32,000 nucleotides of DNA, taken from Vibrio tubiashii (lineage in GTDB: Bacteria; Pseudomonadota; Gammaproteobacteria; Enterobacterales; Vibrionaceae). The DNA lies in the NCBI GenBank assembly GCA_000775715.1, contig JRWQ01000001.1, forward strand, positions 510,225 through 542,224, read 5' to 3'. Below, in pieces: positions 3,475 through 17,866 of the stretch. Position numbers and translations under genes: made by a program. Under the pieces are notes generated by a model. It worked only from the letters and a program-made list of their open reading frames with translations, was not told where the DNA came from and searched no databases. Numbering within the stretch: position 1 is the stretch's first letter; each line of letters opens with the position of its first letter.

Positions 3475-4278
3475 TTACTGAGGCTGACGTTTCATATCGT
3501 CATGAACCATGGCATTGTCCAGTTCGTGGATTGTACCGATACGCACACGTTTTTCCGGTGCCAGCTTTTCGTACTCAGTGAGATAGATATCGCTGTGAAT
3601 GTGCTCGGCAATCATTTTCACCAACAGGCGATTGTTGGTATATAAGCCTACCGTCTCTTCTCGATGTGAGAACATTAAGCCCTGCTTCATATCGGCAACA
3701 ATCATAAAGCGGTGGGAAGGATACTCAGTCTCTTCATTATCTGAGCGAGCGTAGAGCTCAATTTTTGGATGAGGTACCGCGATGCGATTAAATGAGAAGG
3801 CGATAATTCGCACTCCACGCTCAGCCGCCTCAATCAATTCTGCCGAGAATCTTGGGTCAAGTTGGAAGTCGGTGTTGAGGTAGATTTCGACTTGAGCTAA
3901 CTCGATCACCTCTTTGGCTTTCTGGACTAAGTTGTCGATACCAGTGACGTTGTACACAAACTCTTTTTCCTCAGTGAGCATCATTCGTGACAACTCTTTC
4001 TTAAGGATATGGATGTTTTCTACGGTACTCTTTTCGATCTGGTTAAAGATAAGCTCTGGAGATTTGGCTTCGTACTCTTTAGTGTCTCCATCGGACATAA
4101 AGATATAACCATTTTTGTATAGATTATCGATAGAAGAGTAGACAGAAGAACGCGACAGAGAGATATCTTTCGCGATTTTGTAGCCACTGGCACAACCGTT
4201 TTTGAGAAGGTTGATATAGACCAAGGAATCCGTTTTCGTAAAACCAAAATTCATCAACTTAGTAACCAAGTCTGACAC
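3475..4278 (-). CDS. TrmB-family transcriptional regulator (sugar-responsive type)
   Basis: N-terminal TrmB-type wHTH (LMNFGFTKTDSLVYINLLKNGCASGYKIAKDISLSRSSVYSSIDNLYKNGYI) plus helical linker and PLD-like effector region. Track ORF extends to 4302; GTG at 4278 has a good RBS (AGAGGA-caaacc-GTG). Confidence 0.82.
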   Translation of the reverse strand: MSDLVTKLMNFGFTKTDSLVYINLLKNGCASGYKIAKDISLSRSSVYSSIDNLYKNGYIFMSDGDTKEYEAKSPELIFNQIEKSTVENIHILKKELSRMMLTEEKEFVYNVTGIDNLVQKAKEVIELAQVEIYLNTDFQLDPRFSAELIEAAERGVRIIAFSFNRIAVPHPKIELYARSDNEETEYPSHRFMIVADMKQGLMFSHREETVGLYTNNRLLVKMIAEHIHSDIYLTEYEKLAPEKRVRIGTIHELDNAMVHDDMKRQPQ

Positions 4279-4335
4279 GGTTTGTCCTCTAAAATTATTC
4301 AATATTGTGTTCCACTTTGGTTAGATTATCACTGG

Positions 4336-5235
4336 TTAAGCTCTAAGCCTAACTTGACGTGCAAGTAGTTGCGCTTTTGTTTGAGCTGCTCCGTGAGCAA
4401 TAGAAAAATCCTCGTAGGGCAGAGCCAGCATTGCTGGCCGCGGGGAGAGGTTGCAATAGCGACTAAGGGCAACTTTTAGGTCACTCGAGATCTGTGCATA
4501 GCGCGACGCGCTGCCAAGTATTAGCAAGCTTCTTGGCAAGCTATTTTCGATATGTGGCTTTAGCGCGCGAGCCAGTTGATCGATGTAGCGTCGATAGGTA
4601 CGTGCGGCAATAGGGTCTCCAGATTCTAATGCGCAAAATATCTCTTTTACATTGGCGCGTTTAAGCAGGATCTGCTCATACTGTCGCTCCAATCCTGAAA
4701 CCGAAACAAACTGTTCAGTACACGCTTCACTGGCACAACTGCAGCTAGTAACGAGGCCATCAAGGACGAAGTCATAGTCCGGAAGAGCGACATGCGCCCA
4801 GGGTATCGAGCGCATGGTGCGTTGAGAAATACCGCGACGAGTTCTACTGCAAGAGTAAAGCTCGCATTCGTTATCGAGTACAACGCACAGCACTTCTCCG
4901 AGTTTTATCTGCGATAAGACATCAGGTGAACTCTGTAAACCAGCTTCGACAAAGTTGCTCTTGCTGCAAGGGATTCGATAGTGCTGTTCAATCAGGGTGG
5001 GTAACGCCAATTGATGACGCTCAAGCCAGACTTGAACTTCCTCAGTCATCGCCAACCCAATCGAACAGAATGTACTGTATGCCCATTGGAAGTTGTCCAC
5101 CAACTGAAACACCTGCTGTTTAACTTCCAGCGCGGTCTGATTGAGGCTTTGCTGACTCGTATATACGGTATTGAGCTGCTCATCAAGCACCGTCGCCTTG
5201 AGTTGAACTTTGTCTATCGAGATCCCCAGATGCAT
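4336..5235 (-). CDS. ROK-family-like protein (sugar kinase/regulator-like), divergent
   Basis: MHLGISIDKVQLKATVLDEQLNTVY... and C-terminal RSLLILGSASRYAQ...FSIAHGAAQTKAQLLARQ give an ROK-like layout. Preferred start at 5235 with upstream GAGGGGAA; track ORF extends to 5289. Confidence 0.6.
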   Translation of the reverse strand: MHLGISIDKVQLKATVLDEQLNTVYTSQQSLNQTALEVKQQVFQLVDNFQWAYSTFCSIGLAMTEEVQVWLERHQLALPTLIEQHYRIPCSKSNFVEAGLQSSPDVLSQIKLGEVLCVVLDNECELYSCSRTRRGISQRTMRSIPWAHVALPDYDFVLDGLVTSCSCASEACTEQFVSVSGLERQYEQILLKRANVKEIFCALESGDPIAARTYRRYIDQLARALKPHIENSLPRSLLILGSASRYAQISSDLKVALSRYCNLSPRPAMLALPYEDFSIAHGAAQTKAQLLARQVRLRA

Positions 5236-5248
5236 GCTTTCCCCTCGC

Positions 5249-7018
5249 TTAGTCGTACCAGTAACCGTAAGCCGGTAAACTGATGTCACGATTATCTAGC
5301 GTTACGTTGGCCGGAGAGTCGCTGTTGTTGATCAGGAAGCGTCTTGAGCCGCGTTGATAGCCGACAACGGTAGGATGATGAGTCTCTATCCAGTCGATGT
5401 ATGGTTGATTAAAGCTGTCATCGCCTTTTCTTAGCTCGATCAGTTGTTCAATGAAGGCTTTGAAATCGAGTTCTGTCTGGTTTGGAGACCAGTTCATACA
5501 GCGGCGGTTATCTTCAAGTCCCATGCCTTTTCTCCCTTCCATCGCGACTTCGCCGCCATAGTAAATGCAGGGAGCACCAGCTTGAGTGAACATAAACAGA
5601 TAGGCGAGTTTCGCCCGACGAAGATCGTTACCGCAAAGACTAATTAAGCGAGTGGTATCGTGGCTTTCTAGCAAGTTAAACATCGCTTCGTTAACGTTGC
5701 GTGGATAGGCCAGATAAGCGCTTGTGACAGTCTCCATAAACTGCTGTTTGTTCTGGGCATCAAGGGCAAAGTAATCGGTAATGGCCTGAGTCATTGGGTA
5801 GTTCATTAACGAATCGTACTGATCACCACGCAACCATGGCATACCTTCGTGCCAAATCTCCCCCAAAATGTAGCAGTCTGGTTTTACCTGCTTAACTACG
5901 TTGCGAAACTCGCGCCAGAACTGGTGGTCAACTTCATTGGCGACATCCAGTCTCCAGCCGTCGATGTCGAACTCTTCTACCCAGTAGCGAGCGACATCTA
6001 ACAGGTATTCACGACATGGCTGATGTTCAGTGTTGAGCTTTGGCATCTCAAGCACGTTGCCAAACGTTTCGTAGTTGAAGTTCCAGCAGTCCCACTCCGA
6101 TTTATCAGTGTCGGGATAAACGGGGAACTGATTGATCCAAAACCAGTCTGCGTATTGAGATTTTTCGCCGTTCTTAACCACGTCTAACCAGAACGGATGT
6201 TGATCGCCGATGTGATTGAACACCGCGTCGAGCATCACTTTCATGCCTCGATCATGCGCCTCTTTAATCAGAGCTCTGAATGCTTCATTGCCGCCAAAGT
6301 GAGGATCGACATTGAAGTAATCAACTGTGTCGTACTTATGGCTGGTATTGGCAGTAAAGATTGGGCACAGATAGAGTCCGTTGACCCCCAAATTTTTAAG
6401 GTAATCGAGATGTTCAATTACGCCCCACAAATCACCGCCCATAAAGTTGCTTGAGGTAGGAACGCTTCCCCATGGCTCAGCATTTTTCGGGCTTATTTCT
6501 GGTCTTCCGTTGGCAAATCGTTCAGGAAAGATCTGATACCAAACGGTCGACTTGGTCCATTGTGGAGTGACCAGAACATCTTTTGGATTGATATAAGGGA
6601 AGCAGAAGAAATTGCTCAGATTGCTCAGCTCAGTTTCTTCCGCTGCCTTGCTGTGTAAATCAACGGTGCGTTTCTCGCCAAACAGTATTTTTTCACCATC
6701 TTTGCCGTAGAGAATAAAACCGTAACGACTGCGGCGTTTAGGCGGTGTAAACTCCGCAAACCAGTGGTCGTGATGTTCGGTGACACCTTCTCGTTCCATT
6801 GGAACTTCGTTGCCACCGACCCAGCCATGAGCATCGCTGCCGCCCAGGTTACCACCGTCCAAGCCTCCTTCCGCCCAGCGGTAAGGGTCACCTATCCATA
6901 AGCTAACGCGCTCAACTTCGTCTTTGGCACATTTAAGTCTCAGGTGCAGAGTCTGCTCATCGTAAGCGTAGCTGTCCGCACTTTTAACTGTGTGTGTTAG
7001 TGAGCTTCGGGTAATCAT
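5249..7018 (-). CDS. GH13 cytoplasmic cyclomaltodextrinase/neopullulanase-type glycosidase
   Basis: DAVFNHIG, EFDIDGWRLDVANEVD, YILGEIWHEG, NLLESHDTTR (catalytic D/E/D), MPKLNTEH and an N-terminal beta-sandwich domain as in GH13 cyclodextrin-hydrolysing enzymes; no signal peptide. Confidence 0.88.
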   Translation of the reverse strand: MITRSSLTHTVKSADSYAYDEQTLHLRLKCAKDEVERVSLWIGDPYRWAEGGLDGGNLGGSDAHGWVGGNEVPMEREGVTEHHDHWFAEFTPPKRRSRYGFILYGKDGEKILFGEKRTVDLHSKAAEETELSNLSNFFCFPYINPKDVLVTPQWTKSTVWYQIFPERFANGRPEISPKNAEPWGSVPTSSNFMGGDLWGVIEHLDYLKNLGVNGLYLCPIFTANTSHKYDTVDYFNVDPHFGGNEAFRALIKEAHDRGMKVMLDAVFNHIGDQHPFWLDVVKNGEKSQYADWFWINQFPVYPDTDKSEWDCWNFNYETFGNVLEMPKLNTEHQPCREYLLDVARYWVEEFDIDGWRLDVANEVDHQFWREFRNVVKQVKPDCYILGEIWHEGMPWLRGDQYDSLMNYPMTQAITDYFALDAQNKQQFMETVTSAYLAYPRNVNEAMFNLLESHDTTRLISLCGNDLRRAKLAYLFMFTQAGAPCIYYGGEVAMEGRKGMGLEDNRRCMNWSPNQTELDFKAFIEQLIELRKGDDSFNQPYIDWIETHHPTVVGYQRGSRRFLINNSDSPANVTLDNRDISLPAYGYWYD

Positions 7019-7034
7019 AAATTAGATCCTGTTA

Positions 7035-7868
7035 TTATTCTTTTACTGCACCACTCACTAAGCCTGTGGTGATGTGTTTTTGAGTCGCAACAAAAAGCAG
7101 AGTGATCGGTATTGCTACCAGCAGAGAGCCTGCGGCAAACAGAGTGAAGTTTTCTGCCGAGTTAGAGGTGATCCAACTGAAAATACCAATAGCCAGAGTC
7201 ATTTTCTCTTCACTGCGTAAGATCAGAGTTGGCAGAATGAAGTCCATCCACGGGCCAGTAAATGACACCAGAGCGACAAACACCAAGATAGGTCTCGCCA
7301 GAGGTAAGATGATCTCGATAAAAATAGTCATATGCCCTGCACCGTCGATTTTTGCTGCCTCATCGAGCGAAGTCGGAATCGCGTCAAAGTAACCCTTCAC
7401 TAGCCAAGTCATAAACGGTAGCGAGCCAGCGACGTAGACAAACAACAGACCGGCGTAGGTATCGATCATATTAAGTTTCGATAGCAGGATATAAATCGCT
7501 GTCATCGATAAGAACGCAGGGAACATCTGCAATACCAGCACACCCATCAAGACATTGCGTTTGCCTTTAAATCGATAGCGTGAGAACACGTAAGCGGTCA
7601 TGGTGACCACCACCAGAGAAATCAGCATATTCGCCGTTGCCAGAGCGAAGGTGTTGAGATACCACTGCAAATAAGGGGTATCCTGAAACAGCGCCACATA
7701 ATGCTCTAGTGAAAAGCTCCAACCGGAAAACGAGGAGCTGAACATATTGCTGCCCGGTTTGAAGGACGCCAATACTGTCCAGATAACCGGCCCTAAAACC
7801 AGTAATGCATTGGTTAACAGGAACAGATAGACCAAACCTGTGGCTAATTTTTGCAACAGAAACTTCAT
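7035..7868 (-). CDS. MalG-like ABC sugar permease
   Basis: Multi-TM; EAAKIDGAGHMTIFIEIILPLARPI EAA loop; MalG-like C-terminus. Confidence 0.92.
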   Translation of the reverse strand: MKFLLQKLATGLVYLFLLTNALLVLGPVIWTVLASFKPGSNMFSSSFSGWSFSLEHYVALFQDTPYLQWYLNTFALATANMLISLVVVTMTAYVFSRYRFKGKRNVLMGVLVLQMFPAFLSMTAIYILLSKLNMIDTYAGLLFVYVAGSLPFMTWLVKGYFDAIPTSLDEAAKIDGAGHMTIFIEIILPLARPILVFVALVSFTGPWMDFILPTLILRSEEKMTLAIGIFSWITSNSAENFTLFAAGSLLVAIPITLLFVATQKHITTGLVSGAVKE

Positions 7869-9154
7869 TACTTCATCCCCACATCATCGCTAAACGAAGA
7901 CATCCGTCGGAACTGCCAGATCGCAATCACTGACAAAAACAAGAAAATAATTATCGAAATCACAGAGGCGATTTGGTACTGCTGGAAGTCGAGTGTGAGT
8001 TTGTAAATCCAGGTAATTAAGATGTCGGTATGCCCTGCAAATCGGTACTCAGGGTTGATCGGTCCGCCTTCGGTTAACAGGAAGATTGCGCCAAAGTTAT
8101 TGAAGTTATGGGCAAACGTCATCACCAGAGAAGGAGCGACCTGATGCAACACCATCGGTAGGGTGATTTCCCTGAACTGCTGGAACTTGTTGGCGCCATC
8201 GACCTCACTAGCCTCATAAAGATCTTGAGGTATGTTGGTTAAGGCTCCTGAAATAAGCAGCATGAAGTAGGGAGCACCGACCCAGACGCTGACCGCTATC
8301 ACCGTGACTTTCGCCATCCATGGATCGGAGAGAAAAGCAACGGAATCAAAGCCCCAGCTATTCAGGGTTGCATTGACCGGACCGACACCATTTAATAGCA
8401 GTCGGAACATCAGCAGAGTAACGAAAGCAGGAATCGCATAAGGTAAAATAAAAACGAAACGCCACGCTTTTTTCGCTTTGATGTTCTTGTTGGACAACGC
8501 CAGTGCCAGCACAAAACCAAAACCACAGGTACATATAGTCGCCAGAATCGCCCACATCACTGTCCAGGTTGCTACGCCAACAAAGGTATTCGACCAAATT
8601 CGCAGTTCAAACAGGGCGATAAAGTTCTTAAACCCGACCCAGTCAACCAAGTTCCTTGGCGGAATATGATGAGGCGCTGAGTAGTTGGTAAATGAGACCA
8701 GTACGGTGATGACAATCGGCATAATGATAAAGGCGATACTGGTTAACATTGCTGGAGAAAGCACCAGAAAAGCAAACTGTCGGTCATATATCGCTTTGAT
8801 CTGCTCGGACGCTGACATCTGACACGGCTGGCAGGATTTGGCATCATTGATGTTAAGTGCATAAAGGCACAGAAAAACAAACACCGCGATCAGAGCAATC
8901 ACACCTTCAACCAACAGGAAGACAGAGTGATCGCCCTGAATGATGGTGAAGCCTTCGCGTGTCTGAGCCACATCGCCAAGAGTAATGAGCTGCTTTAACG
9001 CCAGGCTAAGCTCTGGAATGCTAAAGATAAAAAGTAGCTGAATGAGCAACCAGACCAAGCCTTTTACCCAATGGCCCTGACGCATTTGCGTCAGGCCCAT
9101 GATAAGAACTGAAGCGTTGATCATTGGTTGCATTCGAGTTTGAGACAACAACAT
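7868..9154 (-). CDS. MalF-like ABC sugar permease
   Basis: Multi-TM; EASEVDGANKFQQFREITLPMV EAA loop; overlaps the MalG start by 1 nt. Confidence 0.9.
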   Translation of the reverse strand: MLLSQTRMQPMINASVLIMGLTQMRQGHWVKGLVWLLIQLLFIFSIPELSLALKQLITLGDVAQTREGFTIIQGDHSVFLLVEGVIALIAVFVFLCLYALNINDAKSCQPCQMSASEQIKAIYDRQFAFLVLSPAMLTSIAFIIMPIVITVLVSFTNYSAPHHIPPRNLVDWVGFKNFIALFELRIWSNTFVGVATWTVMWAILATICTCGFGFVLALALSNKNIKAKKAWRFVFILPYAIPAFVTLLMFRLLLNGVGPVNATLNSWGFDSVAFLSDPWMAKVTVIAVSVWVGAPYFMLLISGALTNIPQDLYEASEVDGANKFQQFREITLPMVLHQVAPSLVMTFAHNFNNFGAIFLLTEGGPINPEYRFAGHTDILITWIYKLTLDFQQYQIASVISIIIFLFLSVIAIWQFRRMSSFSDDVGMK

Positions 9155-9157
9155 CTC

Positions 9158-10384
9158 TTACTCCTGTAAACTGATCTGTTCTTTGATCACTGACTCAGCA
9201 CGCTTTAACACCTTCTCTGGTGACTTGTCATTGACCCATAATGAAGTCATGGCACTTGCCATTGGTGACCACAAGTAACCCATTTCAGGAATTGACGGCA
9301 TAGCATCGGCGAAGTAACCCTGACCAATGATCGCATAAGTCGCTTCATCAGCATCGACGATTATCTCCTCCATAACAGCCTGAACTGGCGGAATCGATTT
9401 CGTCATCTCGTAGCGTTTTTTAAGCATCTTGTCGCTACTTAGGTAGCTGGCAAACAGTTGAGCGGCTTTAGGGTAGTTGGTGAAAGAAGAAACGACCGCC
9501 AGACGAACTGTTGAGAAAGTTCGCGGTTGCTTGCCATCCAGAGTGGGAATTGGAATGACGCCATAGTTCACTCCAGAAGCCTCGTAGCCCTGAATTGCCC
9601 ACGGGCCATCGATGATTGCTGCAACCTTACCTTCACTGAACAAACCTCGTCTTACCTGAGGGTTACGCATATCCATTGGGTTAGCACTGTTTGCAGCCTG
9701 TAGCTTTTTCATCGCTTGTAAGCCTTGCTGTGCTTGCTCCGAGGCGATGCCGATATCTTGGGCATTGGTGCCGTTATCGCCAAATTCGTAAGCTCCATAT
9801 AGGGTCAGGAACATGCGTGATTCATAGTAATTCTGCACGTCCCAAAGCAGAGCATATTTGTGTTCTTTGTTGTCATTAAATGACTTAGAGAACTCAATGA
9901 TCTGTTCAAAAGACTCGGGAGCCTGTGGAAGAAGATCCTTGTTGTAGAACAGAGCGGTTGTGGCAAAACTTACCGGGAAGCCGTAGCTTTTCCCCTCAGA
10001 ATTTGCTGCGTTGACAGCACTTTGTAAGAAGTGAGCGTTGATGTGATCAGCAGAGACCAGATTTTCCATCGCACCACCAGCTACGACTAAGCGACCAAGC
10101 AGGTCATGCTCAATTTCAGCCACATCAGCGACTCGAGCTGAGCCTCCATCCTGGATTAATCGTGAAGCGGCATCAATCGGTGCCAGTCCACGGAAAGTGA
10201 ACGCCACCTCATAACCCGAATCCTGATTGAACTGGTTGGCGGCGTACTTCATATAATCGACGGTTGTGTGATCGGTCCAGACTAACAGATTTGCACCTGG
10301 TTCCGGTTCAATCGGCTGTGCCATGGCAGTGGCGCTAACAAGAGTGGTGAGCAGTATTTGACTGGTCAATAACTTGGTTTTCAT
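9158..10384 (-). CDS. Maltodextrin/cyclodextrin periplasmic binding protein (MalE-like)
   Basis: Signal peptide MKTKLLTSQILLTTLVSATAMAQP, binding-protein sequence ANLLVWTDHTT...EGKVAAIIDGPWAIQGY. Start M5 of track ORF (10384) more plausible than 10396. Confidence 0.88.
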   Translation of the reverse strand: MKTKLLTSQILLTTLVSATAMAQPIEPEPGANLLVWTDHTTVDYMKYAANQFNQDSGYEVAFTFRGLAPIDAASRLIQDGGSARVADVAEIEHDLLGRLVVAGGAMENLVSADHINAHFLQSAVNAANSEGKSYGFPVSFATTALFYNKDLLPQAPESFEQIIEFSKSFNDNKEHKYALLWDVQNYYESRMFLTLYGAYEFGDNGTNAQDIGIASEQAQQGLQAMKKLQAANSANPMDMRNPQVRRGLFSEGKVAAIIDGPWAIQGYEASGVNYGVIPIPTLDGKQPRTFSTVRLAVVSSFTNYPKAAQLFASYLSSDKMLKKRYEMTKSIPPVQAVMEEIIVDADEATYAIIGQGYFADAMPSIPEMGYLWSPMASAMTSLWVNDKSPEKVLKRAESVIKEQISLQE

Positions 10385-10393
10385 TGCTGCATC

Positions 10394-10426
10394 CAATTTA
10401 GTAGTTCACGATATACTACTAAATTG
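10394..10426. promoter_or_regulatory. Perfect 11-bp inverted repeat, candidate operator or 5'UTR hairpin
   Basis: CAATTTAGTAG (10394-10404) - ttcacgatata - CTACTAAATTG (10416-10426). Confidence 0.6.
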
Positions 10427-10496: not shown

Positions 10497-10774
10497 ATTG
10501 CTTATCTCACAACGAATTAAAGCCGGTTTCGGCTTGCTTACATTCTTATTGTTAGTTTTATTTTTAATGGCTATTAACTCGAATCAATCGCTGTTTTTAG
10601 TGACGCTCTTCAAATTATCACCCGAATTCGAGTGACCAAGATCTCATTTAAATCCCATTCAGCGAGCAAATAATATTCAGATACAGAACAATGACTAGGC
10701 GTTCAGGCTGAACTACTACTTTTAAATCCGATTAATATCAATAGAATCCACCTCTATGAGGTTAAGGAAACACT

Positions 10775-11812
10775 GTGAACAGGACTGTACTCTCGCTCAG
10801 TATTGCTTGCGCTCTGAGCTCTGCACCTGCTGCTTTTGCTGCGGAAAAAGGACCGGCTCCCCAACAAATGGGCGGTAATATTCTGACTCAAGCCTTAGAT
10901 TTTGGCGGCCACGTTGGAACGTCGATTGAAATTGAAGACAAAGATATTACCAACTACAAAACCTGGGGTGGGCAAACAGAAAATGAACGCACTACCACCC
11001 ATGAAGTGATTGGACTGTTTTATAAAAACGCCCACTGGAACTTCTCGTCTTTGTACGCTTTTAAGTTGACTGACCGTGTTAAACGCAGTCAGGATCGCTC
11101 GTACACGGAAACGGAAGATGGCTATAAGCACCTGATTTCAATTGATAAAAAGTTCTCATTACCGAACGGTTTTGAAACTGGCGTTATCTATGACCTTGAA
11201 TACTCACTAGGTACTATTGCTACCACTGCTGGCGTGAGCAACCTGCGTACTACCAATGCAGAACACAGCATTCGCCCTTATCTCAACTTTTACAGCAATG
11301 AGTACGATGCAGGCTTCCAATCCAACCTTGAATACCTCTACAACGACGAAGATAAATCGGCGTGGGGCACTCGAGTTGAAGAAGGTTACTCGGTGTTAGT
11401 TAAGCCCTATAAACGTTTTGGTAACTGGGAGCTGGGTGTAGAGTTCTACTACCAGATTAAAGACAACAAAGCGCATAACAGTGATGGCTCAATTAACGAA
11501 ATTAGTGACTTTACTGAAAAGTATGTTGAGCCAATCGTACAGTACAGCTTTGAAGATGCTGGTACCTTATACGTTCGTGCCCGTTACGGTGAAAACGAAA
11601 CCAAACATACACAAGGTTGGGCTGCAGGAGAGCAGTACTTCAAAGATATTCGTAAAGCCACTATGGGTTACGAACAGTCTGTCGGTGATAACTGGTTGCT
11701 GAAAGGTGAGTACGAGTGGGCCAAAGATACTGAAACCTTCACTCAGCTTGCTGGAGAGGAGAAGGTCGTTGAGCAGAACACCTTCTTGCTCCAGGCTATT
11801 TACCGTCTGTAA
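10775..11812 (+). CDS. OmpG/CymA-like monomeric outer-membrane porin
   Basis: GTG start with AAGGA RBS; signal peptide MNRTVLSLSIACALSSAPAAFA; alternating amphipathic strands, terminal NTFLLQAIYRL. Confidence 0.8.
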   Translation: MNRTVLSLSIACALSSAPAAFAAEKGPAPQQMGGNILTQALDFGGHVGTSIEIEDKDITNYKTWGGQTENERTTTHEVIGLFYKNAHWNFSSLYAFKLTDRVKRSQDRSYTETEDGYKHLISIDKKFSLPNGFETGVIYDLEYSLGTIATTAGVSNLRTTNAEHSIRPYLNFYSNEYDAGFQSNLEYLYNDEDKSAWGTRVEEGYSVLVKPYKRFGNWELGVEFYYQIKDNKAHNSDGSINEISDFTEKYVEPIVQYSFEDAGTLYVRARYGENETKHTQGWAAGEQYFKDIRKATMGYEQSVGDNWLLKGEYEWAKDTETFTQLAGEEKVVEQNTFLLQAIYRL

Positions 11813-11840: not shown

Positions 11841-12866
11841 ATGATCACAGTTTCAGAAATTGCCCAGTTAGTTGGCGGCCAGATAGATGGTGACCCGAGT
11901 TTAACTGTGGATACGATTGTGCCGCTGTATAGCCCTGATGAAGGGGGATTAGCTATCGTATTTTCTAAATCTGATCTCAAAATGATCGAAAGTTCAAAAG
12001 CGGATGTGATCATAGGACCTGATAGCATTTTAACCAGCAACGCCAGATGTAAGATAGTGATTGAGTCGCTTAAAGCGCAAACACTGAATGCCCTACTACG
12101 TTATTACAAAGTACATAAGTATCAACTGTTTGAGCAGGGTAATACCTCAGACAATCCCGATGTCTATATCGGCAAGCACTGCACTATTGGCAACAACTGC
12201 CACTTTATGCCTGGCGTAAAAATCATGAATGGTGTGACCATTGGCGACAATGTTGCAATTCATGCCAATACGGTGATTAAAGAGGGCACGGTGATTGGCA
12301 ATAACGTTACTATCGACTCCAACAACGCCATCGGTAATTTCAGCTTCGAATATATGAATGGCCAACATGGCGAGTTCGAACGAGTGGAAAGTGTCGGACG
12401 AGTTATCATCGAGGACGATGTTGAGATCGGCTGTAACAACACTATAGACCGTGGCACTCTGGGAAATACCGTGATTGGCAAAGGGACTAAGATAGATAAC
12501 CTAGTCCAGATTGGTCATGACTGTAAAGTGGGCCAACATTGTCTGCTGGTTTCTCAGGTAGGCTTAGCCGGACACACCGTTCTTGGCCAACATGTCATTG
12601 TTCACGGACAGGCTGGCACCGCTGGCCATATCACTATCGGTGACCACTCAGTCATCAAAGCTAAATCAGGCGTCAGCCAGTCATTTCCTGCTCATAGCGA
12701 CCTATTTGGTTACCCAGCCAAAGATGCTCGTGCTTATTACAAAAACCTGGCGGTGCTTAACAAGCTTACCCGCCAGTTTGATAGCAAAAAACACTCTAAA
12801 ACTACGCAAAAATCTGACCAGCCTAGCCACTGGCTTAAACGCTTATTCACTGGCTGTAAGGCCTAA
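11841..12866 (+). CDS. LpxD-like UDP-3-O-acyl-glucosamine N-acyltransferase paralogue (left-handed beta-helix)
   Basis: LpxD-like N-terminal domain; hexapeptide repeats; [31 protein letters not shown] matches the LpxD core; C-terminal helices with [15 protein letters not shown]. Confidence 0.85.
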
Positions 12867-12884: not shown

Positions 12885-13370
12885 ATGATGAAAAAAGTCA
12901 TTCTACCTCTATTACTCAGTGCTCTTGCTGCTGGCTGTTCCAGCACCAGTGAAAATACCAACCAAGTTATCCCGACCAATGCGGATAGTCTGCTGGCGAA
13001 ATGTGATTTGCCAACGGTTGAGGATCGCGGTCCGATTCGTCCGTCACTGTTTGTCGTCGGAACCTTTGATGAAGGTCAGTGGATTCACCTGGAAGACCGC
13101 GAAATGAGCCATAAGGGCGATGGCATCTATCAGGTTGTTCATCAAGAGAAAGCCGGTGTGGTTAATGTCCAGTTTGCAACTATGAACTGGAACCCGCAAT
13201 TCACAGTGTCGGGACGCAAAATGGGCGTCAATCAGGAAATCGCTCTGAAGCGCGGTGGTTTTGCTAAAAACACCCGAGTCGAAATCCCTGCTGATGGCGA
13301 GTATGTCTGGTCAATTCAGATTGGCGAAGATAAAAAGCCAATTCGCGCCATGATTGCCACTTGTCAGTAA
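12885..13370 (+). CDS. Small lipoprotein, possible glucan-binding beta-sandwich
   Basis: Lipobox LSALAAGC; SLFVVGTFDEGQWIHLEDREMSHKGDGIYQVVHQEKAG...VNVQFATMNWNPQFT resembles modules of starch enzymes. Track ORF 12885 start MMKKVIL or next Met. Confidence 0.7.
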   Translation: MMKKVILPLLLSALAAGCSSTSENTNQVIPTNADSLLAKCDLPTVEDRGPIRPSLFVVGTFDEGQWIHLEDREMSHKGDGIYQVVHQEKAGVVNVQFATMNWNPQFTVSGRKMGVNQEIALKRGGFAKNTRVEIPADGEYVWSIQIGEDKKPIRAMIATCQ

Positions 13371-13472: not shown

Positions 13473-14612
13473 ATGGCAACAGTTAGCCTAAAACAAGTAG
13501 AAAAACAGTATGACAACGGCTTCAAGGCGGTACAAGGGATTGATCTCGAGATTAATGAAGGCGAATTCATGGTGTTTGTCGGCCCATCAGGCTGCGCTAA
13601 ATCGACCACACTAAGAATGATTGCTGGTCTTGAATCGATTTCATCTGGTGATGTTCATATTGGTGATCGCAGAGTCAACGATTTACCACCGAAAGATCGC
13701 GGAATCGCGATGGTGTTTCAAAACTACGCTCTTTACCCGCACAAGACAGTTTTCGACAACATGGCTTTCGGTCTAAAGATGGCGAAGAAACCCAAAGATG
13801 AAATTAAGAGAAGGGTTGAAGAAGCGGCAGAGAAATTAGAAATCACTGATCTCCTCTACCGTAAACCAAAAGAGATGTCTGGTGGTCAGCGTCAGCGTGT
13901 GGCGGTTGGTCGCGCTATTGTTCGTAAACCGGATGTATTTCTGTTCGATGAGCCACTATCGAATCTGGATGCCAAGCTGCGTGTCTCTATGCGGGTGAAA
14001 ATCGCCCAACTTCATCAGTCTCTTAAGGATGAAGGCAATCCGGCAACCATGATTTATGTTACCCACGATCAGACTGAAGCTTTGACGCTCGGTGACCGTA
14101 TCTGTGTTCTGAATCAGGGCAAGATCATGCAAGTTGATACGCCAGCGAACCTTTACAACTACCCAGCTAATCGTTTCGTTGCTAGCTTTATCGGCTCTCC
14201 GGCAATGAACCTAGTCGATACAGCGCTGCGTCGTGATGGTGAGAATCTTATCGTCGAAATTGCTCCGTCTGCCCGCATTCTGATCCCGAAAGCAATGCAA
14301 GCGGAGCTTGAGCAGTACGTCGACAACCCAGTCTGCTTTGGTATCCGTCCGGAGCATATCTCACTGGCACAAGAGGGTGAAACATTGAATACCTTCGAAG
14401 GCAAGCTGTCAGTCGTTGAAAATCTGGGGAACGAAAAATACCTCTATTTCACTGTTGGTGGCAAAGAGCTGATTGCCCGAGTGCAAGATCAGTCGATCAC
14501 GACAGCAGATATTGGTCGAACTTTCCGTTTCAACCTCAATACTGAATTCTGCCATATCTTCGATTTTTACAATGAAAACAACCTAATTCACAGTCGACCC
14601 TACTCGGCTTAG
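13473..14612 (+). CDS. malK: MalK/UgpC-type ABC transporter ATPase
   Basis: GPSGCAKSTTLRMIAG Walker [37 protein letters not shown], MalK-type C-terminal regulatory domain. Confidence 0.93.
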   Translation: MATVSLKQVEKQYDNGFKAVQGIDLEINEGEFMVFVGPSGCAKSTTLRMIAGLESISSGDVHIGDRRVNDLPPKDRGIAMVFQNYALYPHKTVFDNMAFGLKMAKKPKDEIKRRVEEAAEKLEITDLLYRKPKEMSGGQRQRVAVGRAIVRKPDVFLFDEPLSNLDAKLRVSMRVKIAQLHQSLKDEGNPATMIYVTHDQTEALTLGDRICVLNQGKIMQVDTPANLYNYPANRFVASFIGSPAMNLVDTALRRDGENLIVEIAPSARILIPKAMQAELEQYVDNPVCFGIRPEHISLAQEGETLNTFEGKLSVVENLGNEKYLYFTVGGKELIARVQDQSITTADIGRTFRFNLNTEFCHIFDFYNENNLIHSRPYSA

Positions 14613-14638: not shown

Positions 14639-16603
14639 ATGATAAAACGGACACTGATTTGCAGCGCTCTGCTTGCGACAATGGCCATCGGAGGCGGATT
14701 TTCTGCACCAGCAATAAGTGCAGAAACCGCGGCTGACAGTAGCTACGATTTCAGGCAGGAGACTATCTATTTCGTCTTCTTAGATCGATTTAGTGATGGC
14801 GATGCGACAAACAACAGTGGCAATAACCCGTTGACGTACGACCCTAACAACCTCAAAAAGTATGTGGGTGGTGACATTAGAGGTTTGATCAACAAGCTGC
14901 CGTATCTCAAATCTCTCGGTATCACGGCGATATGGATTACTCCGCCGGTAGATAATGCCGACAACCTTGATGTTAATGGTGGGGCTGGTTACCACGGCTA
15001 CTGGGGTAAAGACTTCTTCCGCGTTGATGAGCACTTAGGCACCATGGACGACTTTAAAGAGTTGAGCCAGTTGATGCACAGCCCTGAATACAACATGAAG
15101 CTAGTACTGGATTATGCGCCAAACCACTCGAATGGTAACGATGAAAATGAGTACGGCGCCCTGTACCGTGACGGCCAGTACATTACTGATTACACCACTG
15201 ACGTTGCTGCTGGCACCAACTGGTATCACCACAATGGCGGTGTAACCGACTGGAATAACTGGTATCAGGTTCGTAACCACAATCTATTTAACCTTTCTGA
15301 CTTCAACCAGTCTAATGCTCAGGTTTACAACTACCTGTTGGATGGCGCTAAATTCTGGATTGATGCAGGTGTTGATGCCATTCGTATTGATGCGATTAAG
15401 CACATGGATAAAGCGTTTATCCAGCAATGGACAGGTGACATCTACAACTACGCATCGACTATTGGCCGCGATGGGTTTTACTTCTTCGGCGAGTGGTTTG
15501 GTGCCAGCGCAACGACAACCATAGGTATTGATGGTTATGCGATCGATTATGCCAATACTTCAGGTTCGGCACTGCTCGATTTTGGCTTCCGTGACACCTT
15601 AGAACGTGTGCTAGTTGGTCGCAGAGGCAACACCATGCAGACGTTAAACAGCTATCTGGAAACTCGCAGCAATGTGTTCACCAGCGATGACTGGCAGGTG
15701 GTATTTATGGACAACCATGATATGGCTCGTATCTCGACCGCGCTGCGTTCGACAGCCAGCACGTTCGGCCCAGGTAACAATGAAGAAGGGGGCGGCCTGT
15801 CAGAAGCGTTTGCCAAAAAACGCGTCGACCTGGGCTTGGTTGCGACTATGACGGTGCGTGGTATACCAGCCATCTACTACGGCACGGAACATTACAGCGC
15901 AAACTTCTCGACCAATGCGTTTGGTCAGGTTGGTAGCGATCCATACAACCGCGAAGTCATGCCAAGCTTCGCTCAGGACAGTGAAGCATTTAAGATCATT
16001 CAAGCTTTGACTGAGTTGAGAAAAACCAGTCCTGCGATTCAGCAAGGTAGCTACAGTCAGAAGTGGCTCAACGACGACATTCTGGTTTACGAACGTAAGT
16101 TTGAAGATGACGTTGTGCTAGTGGCTCTAAACCGAGGTGCTGCAACCTCAATTAATGTCTCTGCATTGTCTCTGGCGGACAACTACTACACCAGCCTGGT
16201 TGGTAGCGATGGTGTGACGGTATCTCAGTCTTCTGCGACGCTGAACCTTGACCAGAATGAAGCGATTGTCCTGCATGGCAAGACAACCAGTGGTGGCGGT
16301 AACACAGATCTTATCGACGTGACTTTCACTTGCAGTAACGGTTACACCCAGTGGGGACAAAACGTTTATGCAGTTGGCAGTGCTAGCCAGTTGGGTAGTT
16401 GGGCGCCAGCGCAAGCAGTGAAACTGGATCCAGCCGTTTACCCAACATGGCAAGCAACCATTCAGGTTCCAAGTGGCGAGTCCTTAGAATGGAAATGTCT
16501 GAAGCGTTCAGAAAGTGATAGCAGTGCGCTGATTGAGTGGCAATCGGGTGGCAACAATACGGTGAATACCAGCACACAAACTCAAACCAGCGGCGCATTT
16601 TAA
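14639..16603 (+). CDS. Secreted GH13 cyclodextrin glucanotransferase-like enzyme with C-terminal CBM20
   Basis: Signal peptide; GYHGYWGKDFFRVDEHLGTMDDF, DAGVDAIRIDAIKHM, FFGEWFG, VFMDNHDMARI; C-terminus DVTFTCSNGYTQWGQNVYAVGSASQLGSW...LEWKCLKR (CBM20). Confidence 0.88.
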   Translation: MIKRTLICSALLATMAIGGGFSAPAISAETAADSSYDFRQETIYFVFLDRFSDGDATNNSGNNPLTYDPNNLKKYVGGDIRGLINKLPYLKSLGITAIWITPPVDNADNLDVNGGAGYHGYWGKDFFRVDEHLGTMDDFKELSQLMHSPEYNMKLVLDYAPNHSNGNDENEYGALYRDGQYITDYTTDVAAGTNWYHHNGGVTDWNNWYQVRNHNLFNLSDFNQSNAQVYNYLLDGAKFWIDAGVDAIRIDAIKHMDKAFIQQWTGDIYNYASTIGRDGFYFFGEWFGASATTTIGIDGYAIDYANTSGSALLDFGFRDTLERVLVGRRGNTMQTLNSYLETRSNVFTSDDWQVVFMDNHDMARISTALRSTASTFGPGNNEEGGGLSEAFAKKRVDLGLVATMTVRGIPAIYYGTEHYSANFSTNAFGQVGSDPYNREVMPSFAQDSEAFKIIQALTELRKTSPAIQQGSYSQKWLNDDILVYERKFEDDVVLVALNRGAATSINVSALSLADNYYTSLVGSDGVTVSQSSATLNLDQNEAIVLHGKTTSGGGNTDLIDVTFTCSNGYTQWGQNVYAVGSASQLGSWAPAQAVKLDPAVYPTWQATIQVPSGESLEWKCLKRSESDSSALIEWQSGGNNTVNTSTQTQTSGAF

Positions 16604-16681: not shown

Positions 16682-16713
16682 AAGGCCTTAGGTAACTATC
16701 TAAGGCCTTTTTT
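16682..16713 (+). terminator. Rho-independent terminator of the porin-lpxD-like-malK-CGTase operon
   Basis: AAGGCCTTAG-gtaactat-CTAAGGCCTT followed by TTTT. Confidence 0.9.
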
Positions 16714-16747: not shown

Positions 16748-17830
16748 TTAAGCAACACAAATTCCGTACTTCGGCAGCACATCTCTGATAATCGTTAGCC
16801 TATAAGTTTTCAGTGCATCATGGAAAAGCTTCCAATCTGAATTTAAGAACGACTCTTTATATTTATACGTAACCAAATCCGCTGACTGAGGCGATGCCAT
16901 AGCTTTGCCTCTGGCTATTTCTTTCCAGCTATTTTTTCCGCTCACCTCAAAAGTCAGTTCTACAGCAGGAAAACCAAACTCGCCACGAGAAATGCGTTTC
17001 AGCCATTCCTTATGACGATCTTCACCATCTTCATGTTTAATATCTTGAAATGCTGCCTTCAAAATGAGCTGCTTGTCATTGGGTAAATCCGCTTGAGCGT
17101 CAATATCCATGTTTTGATCTTCCTTGATAAAGCACTTAATTGCCTTGTACATTTGATTCGCCGCACTCAAGAAATCCTCAGTATTGTTTCTTGTAACCTT
17201 ATCACCCCTCCCGTTAACATAACTCCACTCGGCATAAGGACGGTCAGGAAAAGAGAGTGCGGGACCATGACCCAGAGGAGAAATTGTAGAGATACTCCAG
17301 TTAACAATATTGTCTCTTACTCTAGCCAATAAGCTACTATCTGAATTTGATTCGATTTGTTCTACCTGGTTAATCTCATGACTTACGCCAGCAAACCCCT
17401 GATGAGCAAAGGTATCGGCGTAGACGTGCATTGCAATACCCATCATGTGCAGCCCAAAAGAAGAATTCCTATACGCTGCCACTGCTTTTAGCATATCTCG
17501 AGCTACTGGGCTGTCAGGTGTACAGACCAAACGCTGAATAAAACCACCCTCAGGAATAGTGTCAGAGGGTTTACCTTGATTACCTGGGAGGAAGTGAAAA
17601 GGAATCCATGCTAGGTGATTAGCAAGCTCATTGCCATTTCGATAATCGAGCATTTTATGAGCGGAAGAGATACGATTAAACATCGCCCCGTTATCAAACC
17701 GCACTGGATCTGAATTGGTTGCTTCGTCAACGTATTGAGCACAGTAAGCTAACTTTTCTGCATCGCTATGTGTCATTCCAGCGTATCTAGCAACAACATA
17801 AGTGAGTGAATGGTGTCCATCTATTTGCAT
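16748..17830 (-). CDS. DUF6765-like protein of unknown function, metal-rich helical fold likely
   Basis: MQIDGHHSLTYVVARYAGMTHSDAEKLAYCAQYVDEAT..., FGLHMMGIAMHVYADTFAHQGFAGVSHE (many conserved-looking His/Asp). ATG 17830 has GGGAG RBS; track ORF begins at 17863. Confidence 0.65.
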   Translation of the reverse strand: MQIDGHHSLTYVVARYAGMTHSDAEKLAYCAQYVDEATNSDPVRFDNGAMFNRISSAHKMLDYRNGNELANHLAWIPFHFLPGNQGKPSDTIPEGGFIQRLVCTPDSPVARDMLKAVAAYRNSSFGLHMMGIAMHVYADTFAHQGFAGVSHEINQVEQIESNSDSSLLARVRDNIVNWSISTISPLGHGPALSFPDRPYAEWSYVNGRGDKVTRNNTEDFLSAANQMYKAIKCFIKEDQNMDIDAQADLPNDKQLILKAAFQDIKHEDGEDRHKEWLKRISRGEFGFPAVELTFEVSGKNSWKEIARGKAMASPQSADLVTYKYKESFLNSDWKLFHDALKTYRLTIIRDVLPKYGICVA

Positions 17831-17866
17831 TTTAGCGTCTCCCATTGAGCAATATTTGTTCAATAT

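Follow-up and report, generated by a model that had tools for sequence, protein, structure and literature searches.

A 32,000-nucleotide stretch of the Vibrio tubiashii genome (GenBank assembly GCA_000775715.1, contig JRWQ01000001.1; we call the whole stretch the window and number it from its first letter) carries a divergent 11-gene cyclodextrin cluster, in which a gene resembling lpxD lies between the genes for a CymA porin and a lipoprotein. The gene order matches that of the cym cluster in the Klebsiella oxytoca complex, and the gene is therefore the orthologue of cymB, in the lettering cymA to cymJ reportedly used by Fiedler et al. 1996. A comparison of its product and close relatives with ordinary LpxD proteins indicates that the catalytic and acyl-donor residues are intact and that the contacts to uridine diphosphate (UDP) have been replaced. 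We propose, with a probability of roughly 45%, that CymB is a cytoplasmic, probably trimeric, LpxD-derived acyltransferase that has given up the LpxD reaction, uses acyl-acyl carrier protein (acyl-ACP) and has a new, non-nucleotide acceptor, likeliest a sugar hydroxyl. The enzyme would take a (3-hydroxy)acyl chain from acyl-ACP and pass it to this acceptor, which would most likely be the hydroxyl of an imported alpha-glucan, of cyclodextrin or of a derived sugar. In doing so it would form acyl-sugars as a counterpart of the acetyltransferases LacA and Maa.

The gene and the relevant parts of its product are as follows.

11841-12866, plus strand: LpxD-family acyltransferase paralogue, 341 residues, characterised by homology, linkage, clade and purifying selection.
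11955-11975, plus strand: N-domain segment I39...D45, the positions of the uracil-stacking F41 and Y47 of E. coli LpxD, mapped with MAFFT and hhalign.
12339-12353, plus strand: F167-S168-F169-E170-Y171, the clade signature at the position of LpxD D181-G-F-G-Y185.
12516-12521, plus strand: H226-D227, the catalytic His (E. coli H239) followed by an Asp that replaces the LpxD Asn.
12570-12575, plus strand: G244-H245, the oxyanion-hole Gly (E. coli G257) followed by a His that replaces the LpxD Ser.
12627-12629, plus strand: H263, a later His.
12831-12848, plus strand: C-terminal WLKRLF motif, following a variable basic linker.

A preliminary description of this DNA had recognised an LpxD-like acyltransferase in a cyclodextrin operon, and its limits for the open reading frame are exact. 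The frame begins with ATG, with an AAGGAA Shine-Dalgarno-like sequence about 11 nucleotides upstream. Its product comprises an N-terminal domain, a left-handed beta-helix and a C-terminal helix, and shares this arrangement end to end with LpxD (E. coli structures 3eh0 and 4ihf, Chlamydia trachomatis 2iu8). No signal peptide was found, so the protein is expected to be cytoplasmic, as LpxD is. The closest solved structure is that of C. trachomatis LpxD, 2iu8 (E = 1e-47; E. coli LpxD, E = 2e-21), and hhalign against 32 ordinary LpxDs gave a probability of 100% over 317 columns. Two NCBIfam models match above their cutoffs, namely the lpxD equivalog TIGR01853 (259.1 bits, cutoff 242.5, residues 6-312) and NF002060 (260 bits, cutoff 207). 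The Pfam LpxD N-terminal domain, PF04613, went undetected in the protein, where Pfam reports hexapeptide repeats only, and relative to LpxD some 10-14 residues are missing between the N-domain and the helix. LpxA, likewise a left-handed beta-helix acyl-ACP transferase, differs in that it lacks the N-terminal domain and has another C-terminal domain, and its models match at E = 1e-23 compared to 1e-77 for LpxD models. By these alignments the open reading frame encodes a true, full-length LpxD homologue.

Searching 5.8 billion proteins, we find about 100 clusters related to the window protein at 48-96% identity, drawn from Vibrio, Photobacterium, Salinivibrio, Thaumasiovibrio, Endozoicomonas, Klebsiella, Escherichia and Salmonella. 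Below these, identity falls sharply to about 37-40%, where the ordinary LpxDs are found. PF04613 was detected in none of the clade clusters and is present in the ordinary LpxDs just beneath them in the match list, and an exhaustive search of 1.84 billion cluster representatives gave the same boundary. Neighbour-joining on 186 sequences united the cym-linked proteins with two near relatives in 194 of 200 bootstraps; a wider group sharing an SFEY motif, one member of which reads AFEY, was recovered in 177 of 200. The near relative P0121 sits on a 3.5-kb contig beside genes for a radical SAM protein and a DEAD helicase, a context that is uninformative. The distance from the clade to E. coli LpxD (2.02) is greater than that to LpxD representatives generally (1.43), so a recent duplication of the host lpxD can be excluded. 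The tree and the searches thus place the cym-linked proteins in a clade of their own, an offshoot of LpxD. About 61 of 103 clade clusters end in a WLKRLF-like motif, which occurs in no housekeeping LpxD and is missing from the end of the enterobacterial forms, which are shorter; the peptide could serve to bind a membrane or a partner.

We compared 106 clade sequences with 155 ordinary LpxDs in E. coli LpxD numbering, with residue roles taken from a review (PMC6286764); MAFFT and hhalign agreed on the mapping of the N-domain. Counts of residues at each position are given below.

D232 and Q236 (bind the acyl beta-hydroxyl): clade D 106 and Q 106; ordinary LpxD D 154 and Q 124.
N233 (role not given in PMC6286764): clade N 106; ordinary LpxD N 149.
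H239 (catalytic base): clade H 105; ordinary LpxD H 153.
G257 (oxyanion hole): clade G 106; ordinary LpxD G 153.
F183 and Y185 (active-site loop): clade F 104 and Y 104; ordinary LpxD F 136 and Y 102.
F41 (stacks on uracil): clade I 90, V 8, L 4; ordinary LpxD F 112, Y 14.
Y47 (stacks on uracil): clade D 93, E 12; ordinary LpxD Y 92, F 17, H 10.
N44 (pyrophosphate and sugar): clade S/A/Q/T; ordinary LpxD N/D/S.
D181 (loop): clade F 53, Y 47; ordinary LpxD D 137.
G182 (loop): clade S 103; ordinary LpxD G 154.
G184 (loop): clade E 103; ordinary LpxD G 149.
N240 (ribose contact; Gln in Chlamydia): clade D 104, E 2; ordinary LpxD N 145.
S258 (next to the oxyanion Gly): clade H 89, W 16; ordinary LpxD S 140.
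H276 (pyrophosphate): clade H 65, N 23, G 15; ordinary LpxD H 144.

The clade therefore shares with LpxD the catalytic His, the oxyanion Gly, the Asp and Gln that bind the beta-hydroxyl, and F183 and Y185. It departs from LpxD at F41 (I/V/L), Y47 (D/E), N240 (D/E), D181 (F/Y) and S258 (H/W), is variable at N44 and H276, and reads SFEY in place of GFGY. A short signature consisting of I/V at 41, D/E at 47, SFEY, H-D/E and G-H/W is diagnostic for the clade and could be used to find and reclassify its members.

The loop at the GADGFGY position (residues 164-183 of the window protein, [20 protein letters not shown]) matches Chlamydia [23 protein letters not shown] position by position in the alignment. 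It had been described as a replacement of the usual GADGFG(Y/F) sequence, but it is a loop of normal length with three substitutions (D181 to F/Y, G182 to S and G184 to E) in which F183 and Y185 are kept. In E. coli LpxD-ACP complexes the backbone of F183 touches the acyl groups (PMC6286764), and the substitutions at 181, 182 and 184, which flank this residue, are therefore located at the acceptor site. The altered specificity that had been suggested from the loop is very probably real, with a stronger basis in the changes at F41, Y47, N240, S258 and H276, all outside the loop. The core motifs named in the preliminary description are present as stated, TIDRG at residues 201-205 and QIGHD at 223-227, and the further GH pair occurs twice, in LAGH (242-245) and TAGH (260-263).

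The alignment with E. coli LpxA is informative about the acceptor. The clade sequence GHDC coincides with the catalytic dyad H125-D126 of LpxA and LAGH coincides with G143-H144, where H144 of LpxA binds the 6-OH of the sugar; at these places LpxD reads AHN and AGS. The LpxA-like H-D/E pair is found in all 106 clade sequences, and the second pair is G-H in 89 and G-W in 16. As LpxA acylates a hydroxyl and LpxD an amine, we regard these pairs as a hint, and no proof, of hydroxyl acylation.

These data also bear on the possibility that the protein is a genuine LpxD isozyme, such that induction of the cym genes would lead to an N-acylated UDP-3-O-acyl-glucosamine, perhaps with another chain length, and to a lipid A suited to CymA or shielded from lipid extraction by cyclodextrin. 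We consider this unlikely. The catalytic His, the oxyanion Gly and the Asp and Gln that bind the beta-hydroxyacyl chain are indeed invariant, the curated LpxD equivalog model is passed, and the gene is strictly linked to that of an outer-membrane porin and not to transporter genes. However, every contact to uracil, ribose and pyrophosphate differs, and two of them become invariant acidic residues that would sit near the pyrophosphate; Asn240, found in 145 of the 155 ordinary LpxDs, is always Asp or Glu in the clade. Moreover, the Pfam LpxD N-terminal domain is not recognised in the clade, which is no recent copy of a host lpxD. The preliminary description had offered lipid A remodelling to suit the porin as one option, which becomes the less likely one given the loss of the residues that grip the UDP part of the lipid A precursor; acylation of another glycan fits better with the residue comparison.

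There is precedent for a second LpxD-family gene. The LpxD1/LpxD2 pairs of Francisella and Leptospira likewise include a paralogue that is conditionally used, which speaks for an isozyme. Both members of these pairs act in lipid A synthesis and prefer different acyl chains, and they are not known to be tied to a sugar operon. CymA alone is said, in work by Pajatsch et al. in 1999, to be functional when expressed in E. coli, which speaks against an isozyme.

We next consider genomic context. With one genome scanned per species, we obtained 40 loci from 40 species, and a cym-like cluster surrounds the LpxD-like gene in every one of them. CymA is encoded immediately upstream in 38 of the 40 (tblastn), and one further locus ends at a contig edge. 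In the remaining locus, from a Fusobacterium metagenome-assembled genome (MAG), a neighbouring gene encodes a 336-residue remote CymA homologue (hhalign, 97.5%), and an esterase gene is inserted between it and the LpxD-like gene. Porin linkage is thus seen in all 39 informative genome loci. In the reverse direction, a CymA alignment searched against metagenome contigs gave 31 loci, 29 of which extend past cymA, and the LpxD-like gene follows within about 20-30 nucleotides in 29 of these 29. The most distant clade member that we could place, P0312, forms a divergent pair with a gene for a remote CymA homologue (95.7%), and no sugar ABC (ATP-binding cassette) transporter gene is visible near it on the available contig. 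Since the pairing survives in genome, metagenome and distant loci, the porin and the enzyme constitute a conserved unit. An LpxD phylogeny had been suggested as a way to look for a porin-tied clade; such a clade is found, and because the linkage to CymA-family porins appears in both search directions it is clearly conserved across genomes. In the window itself the gaps on either side of the LpxD-like gene are 28 nucleotides (cymA side) and 18 nucleotides (lipoprotein side) by coordinates, one less in each case than first given.

The housekeeping gene occupies a different setting. In E. coli K-12 the order is bamA-skp-lpxD-fabZ-lpxA-lpxB, as the preliminary description had broadly stated, and no lipid A or outer-membrane-biogenesis gene, including bamA, skp, fabZ and lpxA, occurs elsewhere in the window. 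Among 5,426 complete E. coli genomes, 476 carry the cym-like cluster, always on the chromosome between pyk and lpxM, and 5,424 have the housekeeping lpxD. LpxD is thus a housekeeping gene product with its own context, whereas the clade gene is an accessory paralogue that is present beside it and belongs to the cym context. The cluster can also move. On the conjugative IncFIA/IncFII plasmid NZ_CP028479.1 of K. pneumoniae, the complete 11-gene cluster (66708-85658) lies between two IS1 transposase genes, which makes the whole pathway mobile in one piece. On this plasmid the LpxD-like gene carries the electronically inferred Gene Ontology (GO) term "lipid A biosynthetic process".

The ratio of nonsynonymous to synonymous substitution rates (dN/dS) of the LpxD-like gene is 0.06-0.19 against three close orthologues, comparable to the values for cymA and cymC, and the gene is under purifying selection. 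This speaks strongly against a non-catalytic or decaying passenger, whether a relic of the cym cluster or a regulatory or scaffolding protein that has no acyltransferase activity. Such an explanation does find some encouragement in E. coli, where some copies (L005:10057-11013 in AMSCJX03, and proteins P0092 and P0095) are damaged, either by an internal stop, which makes the gene a pseudogene in some strains, or as a 286-residue form from which the SFEY loop is gone. These damaged copies suggest that the gene is being lost in parts of the species. However, the catalytic residues do not vary among some 100 clusters that reach down to 47% identity and span Gammaproteobacteria and Fusobacteria, and the gene is kept in every cym-like cluster that we examined, so we regard the passenger explanation as highly improbable.

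A sister group of LpxD-like genes is found on metagenomic contigs together with genes for dynamin-like GTPases, at the following places.

L047, 3657-6157: sister LpxD-like gene with dynamin-like GTPase.
L050, 328-2852: sister LpxD-like gene with dynamin-like GTPase.
L084, 1818-4314: sister LpxD-like gene with dynamin-like GTPase.
L085, 902-3398: sister LpxD-like gene with dynamin-like GTPase.

The sister proteins have the SFEY, H-E and G-W motifs but retain an aromatic residue at the F41 position. The GTPase (371-505 residues) is encoded upstream, either directly or one small gene away (L050), and in three of three distinct cases the LpxD-like gene is at most 2 nucleotides from the end of the gene before it, or overlaps it. 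A protein of about 243 residues that has no Pfam match is encoded next. This looks like a separate conserved module.

The sister group is relevant to a further explanation, in which the acceptor of the cym-linked enzyme would not be a sugar. A 3-hydroxyacyl chain carried by ACP would go, for example, to a small molecule with an amine or to the head group of a lipid, and the product, another envelope lipid or amphiphile, would be needed for porin function, porin assembly or membrane integrity. The operon shared by the sister genes with dynamin-like, membrane-remodelling GTPases is consistent with this, as is the porin gene that neighbours the cym-linked gene in every arrangement. On the donor side, the residues for a long 3-hydroxyacyl chain are kept, the acceptor region has gained three acidic residues, D45, E170 and D227, that would suit a cationic acceptor, and the hydrophobic-basic motif at the C-terminus of many members could touch the membrane. 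The idea is nonetheless purely inferential; the cluster encodes no candidate pathway for such an acceptor, and all of its other genes handle alpha-glucans. We consider it improbable.

Transfer to a sugar hydroxyl is the reading that we favour, on account of the LpxA-like pairs, the new residues of the acceptor pocket, where the clade has acquired an aromatic residue and two invariant ones, a Glu and an acidic residue, and a genomic context that is devoted to glucans throughout. The C-terminal helix, which is the ACP docking site in LpxD, is retained. LacA and Maa offer a functional parallel, being left-handed beta-helix sugar O-acetyltransferases that occur in sugar-uptake systems with a role peripheral to the main pathway. 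They are small, depend on acetyl-CoA and lack the N- and C-terminal domains of LpxD; they are not specifically related to the clade, and weak matches to hexapeptide families reflect the shared repeat only.

Several observations weigh against acylation of a sugar hydroxyl. The window protein clears the curated NCBI cutoff for LpxD equivalogs. The switch from N- to O-acylation is inferred by analogy from two residue identities, and 16 of the 106 clade sequences have Trp and not His beside the oxyanion Gly. The F41A mutation of E. coli LpxD raises the Km for the acceptor only 29-fold and Y47A has little effect (PMC6286764), so that the loss of F41 and Y47 alone is no proof that the use of a UDP substrate has been lost. 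The predicted structure is too poor for active-site geometry, with a template modelling (TM) score of about 0.23 to LpxD structures. Strict porin adjacency, even where no sugar ABC transporter is seen nearby, would suit an envelope role at least equally well, and the dynamin-like neighbours of the sister group hint that the wider family may act on lipids or membranes. No publication on the function of this gene was found in the literature searched.

A bolder form of the proposal seems to us rather doubtful. In it, CymB would be the first LpxD-fold enzyme to O-acylate a sugar (cyclodextrin, maltodextrin or a derived sugar) from acyl-ACP in place of a UDP-amino sugar, the acyl-glucan or glycolipid product would be of a kind not seen before and would be required with CymA-family porins, and the sister family would do a related job with dynamin-like proteins. 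If this were true, a required acyl-glucan product would explain why porin and enzyme remain adjacent from Vibrio to Fusobacterium.

The gene itself is already known, in that it has been in sequence databases as LpxD since the cym cluster was sequenced, and database entries for the cymB-type protein are annotated as LpxD everywhere. No description of its clade status, its obligate pairing with a CymA-family porin, its rebuilt acceptor site or its function was found in the literature searched. Thousands of entries, including Prokaryotic Genome Annotation Pipeline (PGAP) records with the GO term for lipid A biosynthesis, name this protein LpxD, and the sequence evidence suggests that the name is probably wrong. 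This bears on metabolic reconstructions, lpxD copy counts and surveys of drug targets. The accepted cyclodextrin pathway model consists of cyclodextrin glucanotransferase (CGTase), CymA, CymEFGD and cyclodextrinase (PMC8760340), and has no place for the CymB enzyme, although it is encoded in every cluster examined. CymB would clearly exemplify the re-tooling of an essential enzyme of lipid A synthesis, with the donor side kept and the acceptor side rebuilt.

The other features of the window cluster are listed here.

3475-4302, minus strand: TrmB-family transcriptional regulator at the cymJ position (Pfam TrmB and Regulator_TrmB).
4336-5289, minus strand: ROK-family sugar kinase-like protein at the cymI position (Pfam ROK).
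5249-7018, minus strand: cytoplasmic GH13 cyclomaltodextrinase-like hydrolase at the cymH position (Pfam Alpha-amylase_N and Alpha-amylase).
7035-7868 and 7868-9154, minus strand: two ABC permeases, MalG-like and MalF-like, at the cymG and cymF positions (Pfam BPD_transp_1 in both).
9158-10396, minus strand: periplasmic sugar-binding protein, MalE/CymE-like (Pfam SBP_bac_1 and SBP_bac_8).
10647-10674, plus strand: tentative promoter-like site from a consensus scan only, in the 378-nucleotide divergent intergenic region upstream of cymA.
10775-11812, plus strand: CymA cyclodextrin porin, full length (Pfam PF16941, E = 7e-160).
12885-13370, plus strand: lipoprotein of 161 residues at the cymC position with a starch/cyclodextrin-binding beta-sandwich, by lipobox and predicted fold.
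13473-14612, plus strand: MalK-like ABC ATPase at the cymD position (Pfam ABC_tran, OB_MalK and TOBE_2).
14639-16603, plus strand: secreted GH13 and CBM20 enzyme, cyclodextrin glucanotransferase-like, at the cgt position (Pfam Alpha-amylase and CBM_20).
16682-16709, plus strand: terminator-like hairpin with a 12-bp stem and then a T run, ending the cymA-to-cgt unit.

Because the sole strong plus-strand terminator comes after the last gene, and no comparable one lies on that strand between 10775 and 16603, cymA through the GH13/CBM20 gene would probably be read as a single transcript. The LpxD-like protein of the window is identical to a database entry from V. tubiashii. The window locus is 99% identical to that of Vibrio sp. 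M260118 and 96% identical to that of V. brasiliensis. All 11 genes stand in identical order in the window, in K. grimontii and K. michiganensis of the K. oxytoca complex, and on the K. pneumoniae plasmid; the cymB of the K. oxytoca complex occupies the same position in this layout, with 65% protein identity. Fiedler, Pajatsch and Boeck reportedly described ten cym genes plus cgt in Klebsiella oxytoca in 1996. The TrmB regulator is kept at the cymJ position in most related loci, and the MalK-like gene lies directly 3' of the LpxD-like gene or the lipoprotein gene in all loci but the Fusobacterium MAG. The GH13/CBM20 enzyme has 67% identity to its orthologue, which K. grimontii and K. michiganensis carry at the corresponding place. 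For the hydrolase at the cymH position, the NCBIfam cyclomaltodextrinase and maltodextrin glucosidase models match below their cutoffs. The ROK gene is present in the cgt-bearing Vibrio and Klebsiella clusters and not in the E. coli type.

The lipoprotein encoded at 12885-13370 has the lipobox LAAG|C with a nearly invariant Cys18. It has no match in the family libraries and is named variously "glycosidase" or "hypothetical" by NCBI. Its AlphaFold model is a beta-sandwich (predicted local distance difference test score, pLDDT, 79), of which the top structural match is the starch-binding domain of AmyP, 5x5s (35% identity, E = 3e-11), followed by binding domains of amylases and pullulanases and by SusE. 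From this model the protein is probably no enzyme, and would be a lipid-anchored cyclodextrin- or starch-binding partner of CymA. With the lipoprotein taken as a starch-binding module, all cluster genes but the LpxD-like one have a clear role with glucans, in their capture, uptake or breakdown or in regulation.

The lipoprotein gene is missing in nine loci (L036-L041, L043, L044 and L046). We also see that the lipoprotein is encoded in 58 of 58 loci where the oxyanion Gly of the LpxD-like protein is followed by His (H245), and that none of the nine loci with Trp at this place, and with Gly replacing the later H263, encodes it; this correlation is perfect yet phylogenetically confounded. In the Fusobacterium MAG a PUD-domain protein occupies the place of the lipoprotein. 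The idea that the lipoprotein is a diverged PUD domain was rejected, there being no sequence similarity.

A second type of cluster, found in E. coli (L001 and L005) and in the Fusobacterium MAG (L044), is without the secreted CGTase-like and ROK genes. It adds genes for a PF00756 esterase, an Amidohydro_2/TatD-like amidohydrolase and a GH38 alpha-mannosidase, and in E. coli also a GH127 gene. As the additions are the same in the E. coli and Fusobacterium clusters, this type may act on a substrate other than cyclodextrin. The Vibrio and Klebsiella clusters examined lack both the esterase and the amidohydrolase gene, and a cycle of acylation and deacylation, which the two genes might bring to mind, is given little weight, since neither belongs to the conserved core.

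Just past the operon terminator of the window, at 16748-17863 on the minus strand, a 371-residue DUF6765 protein (E = 8e-100) is encoded, which shows no sign of membership in the cluster.

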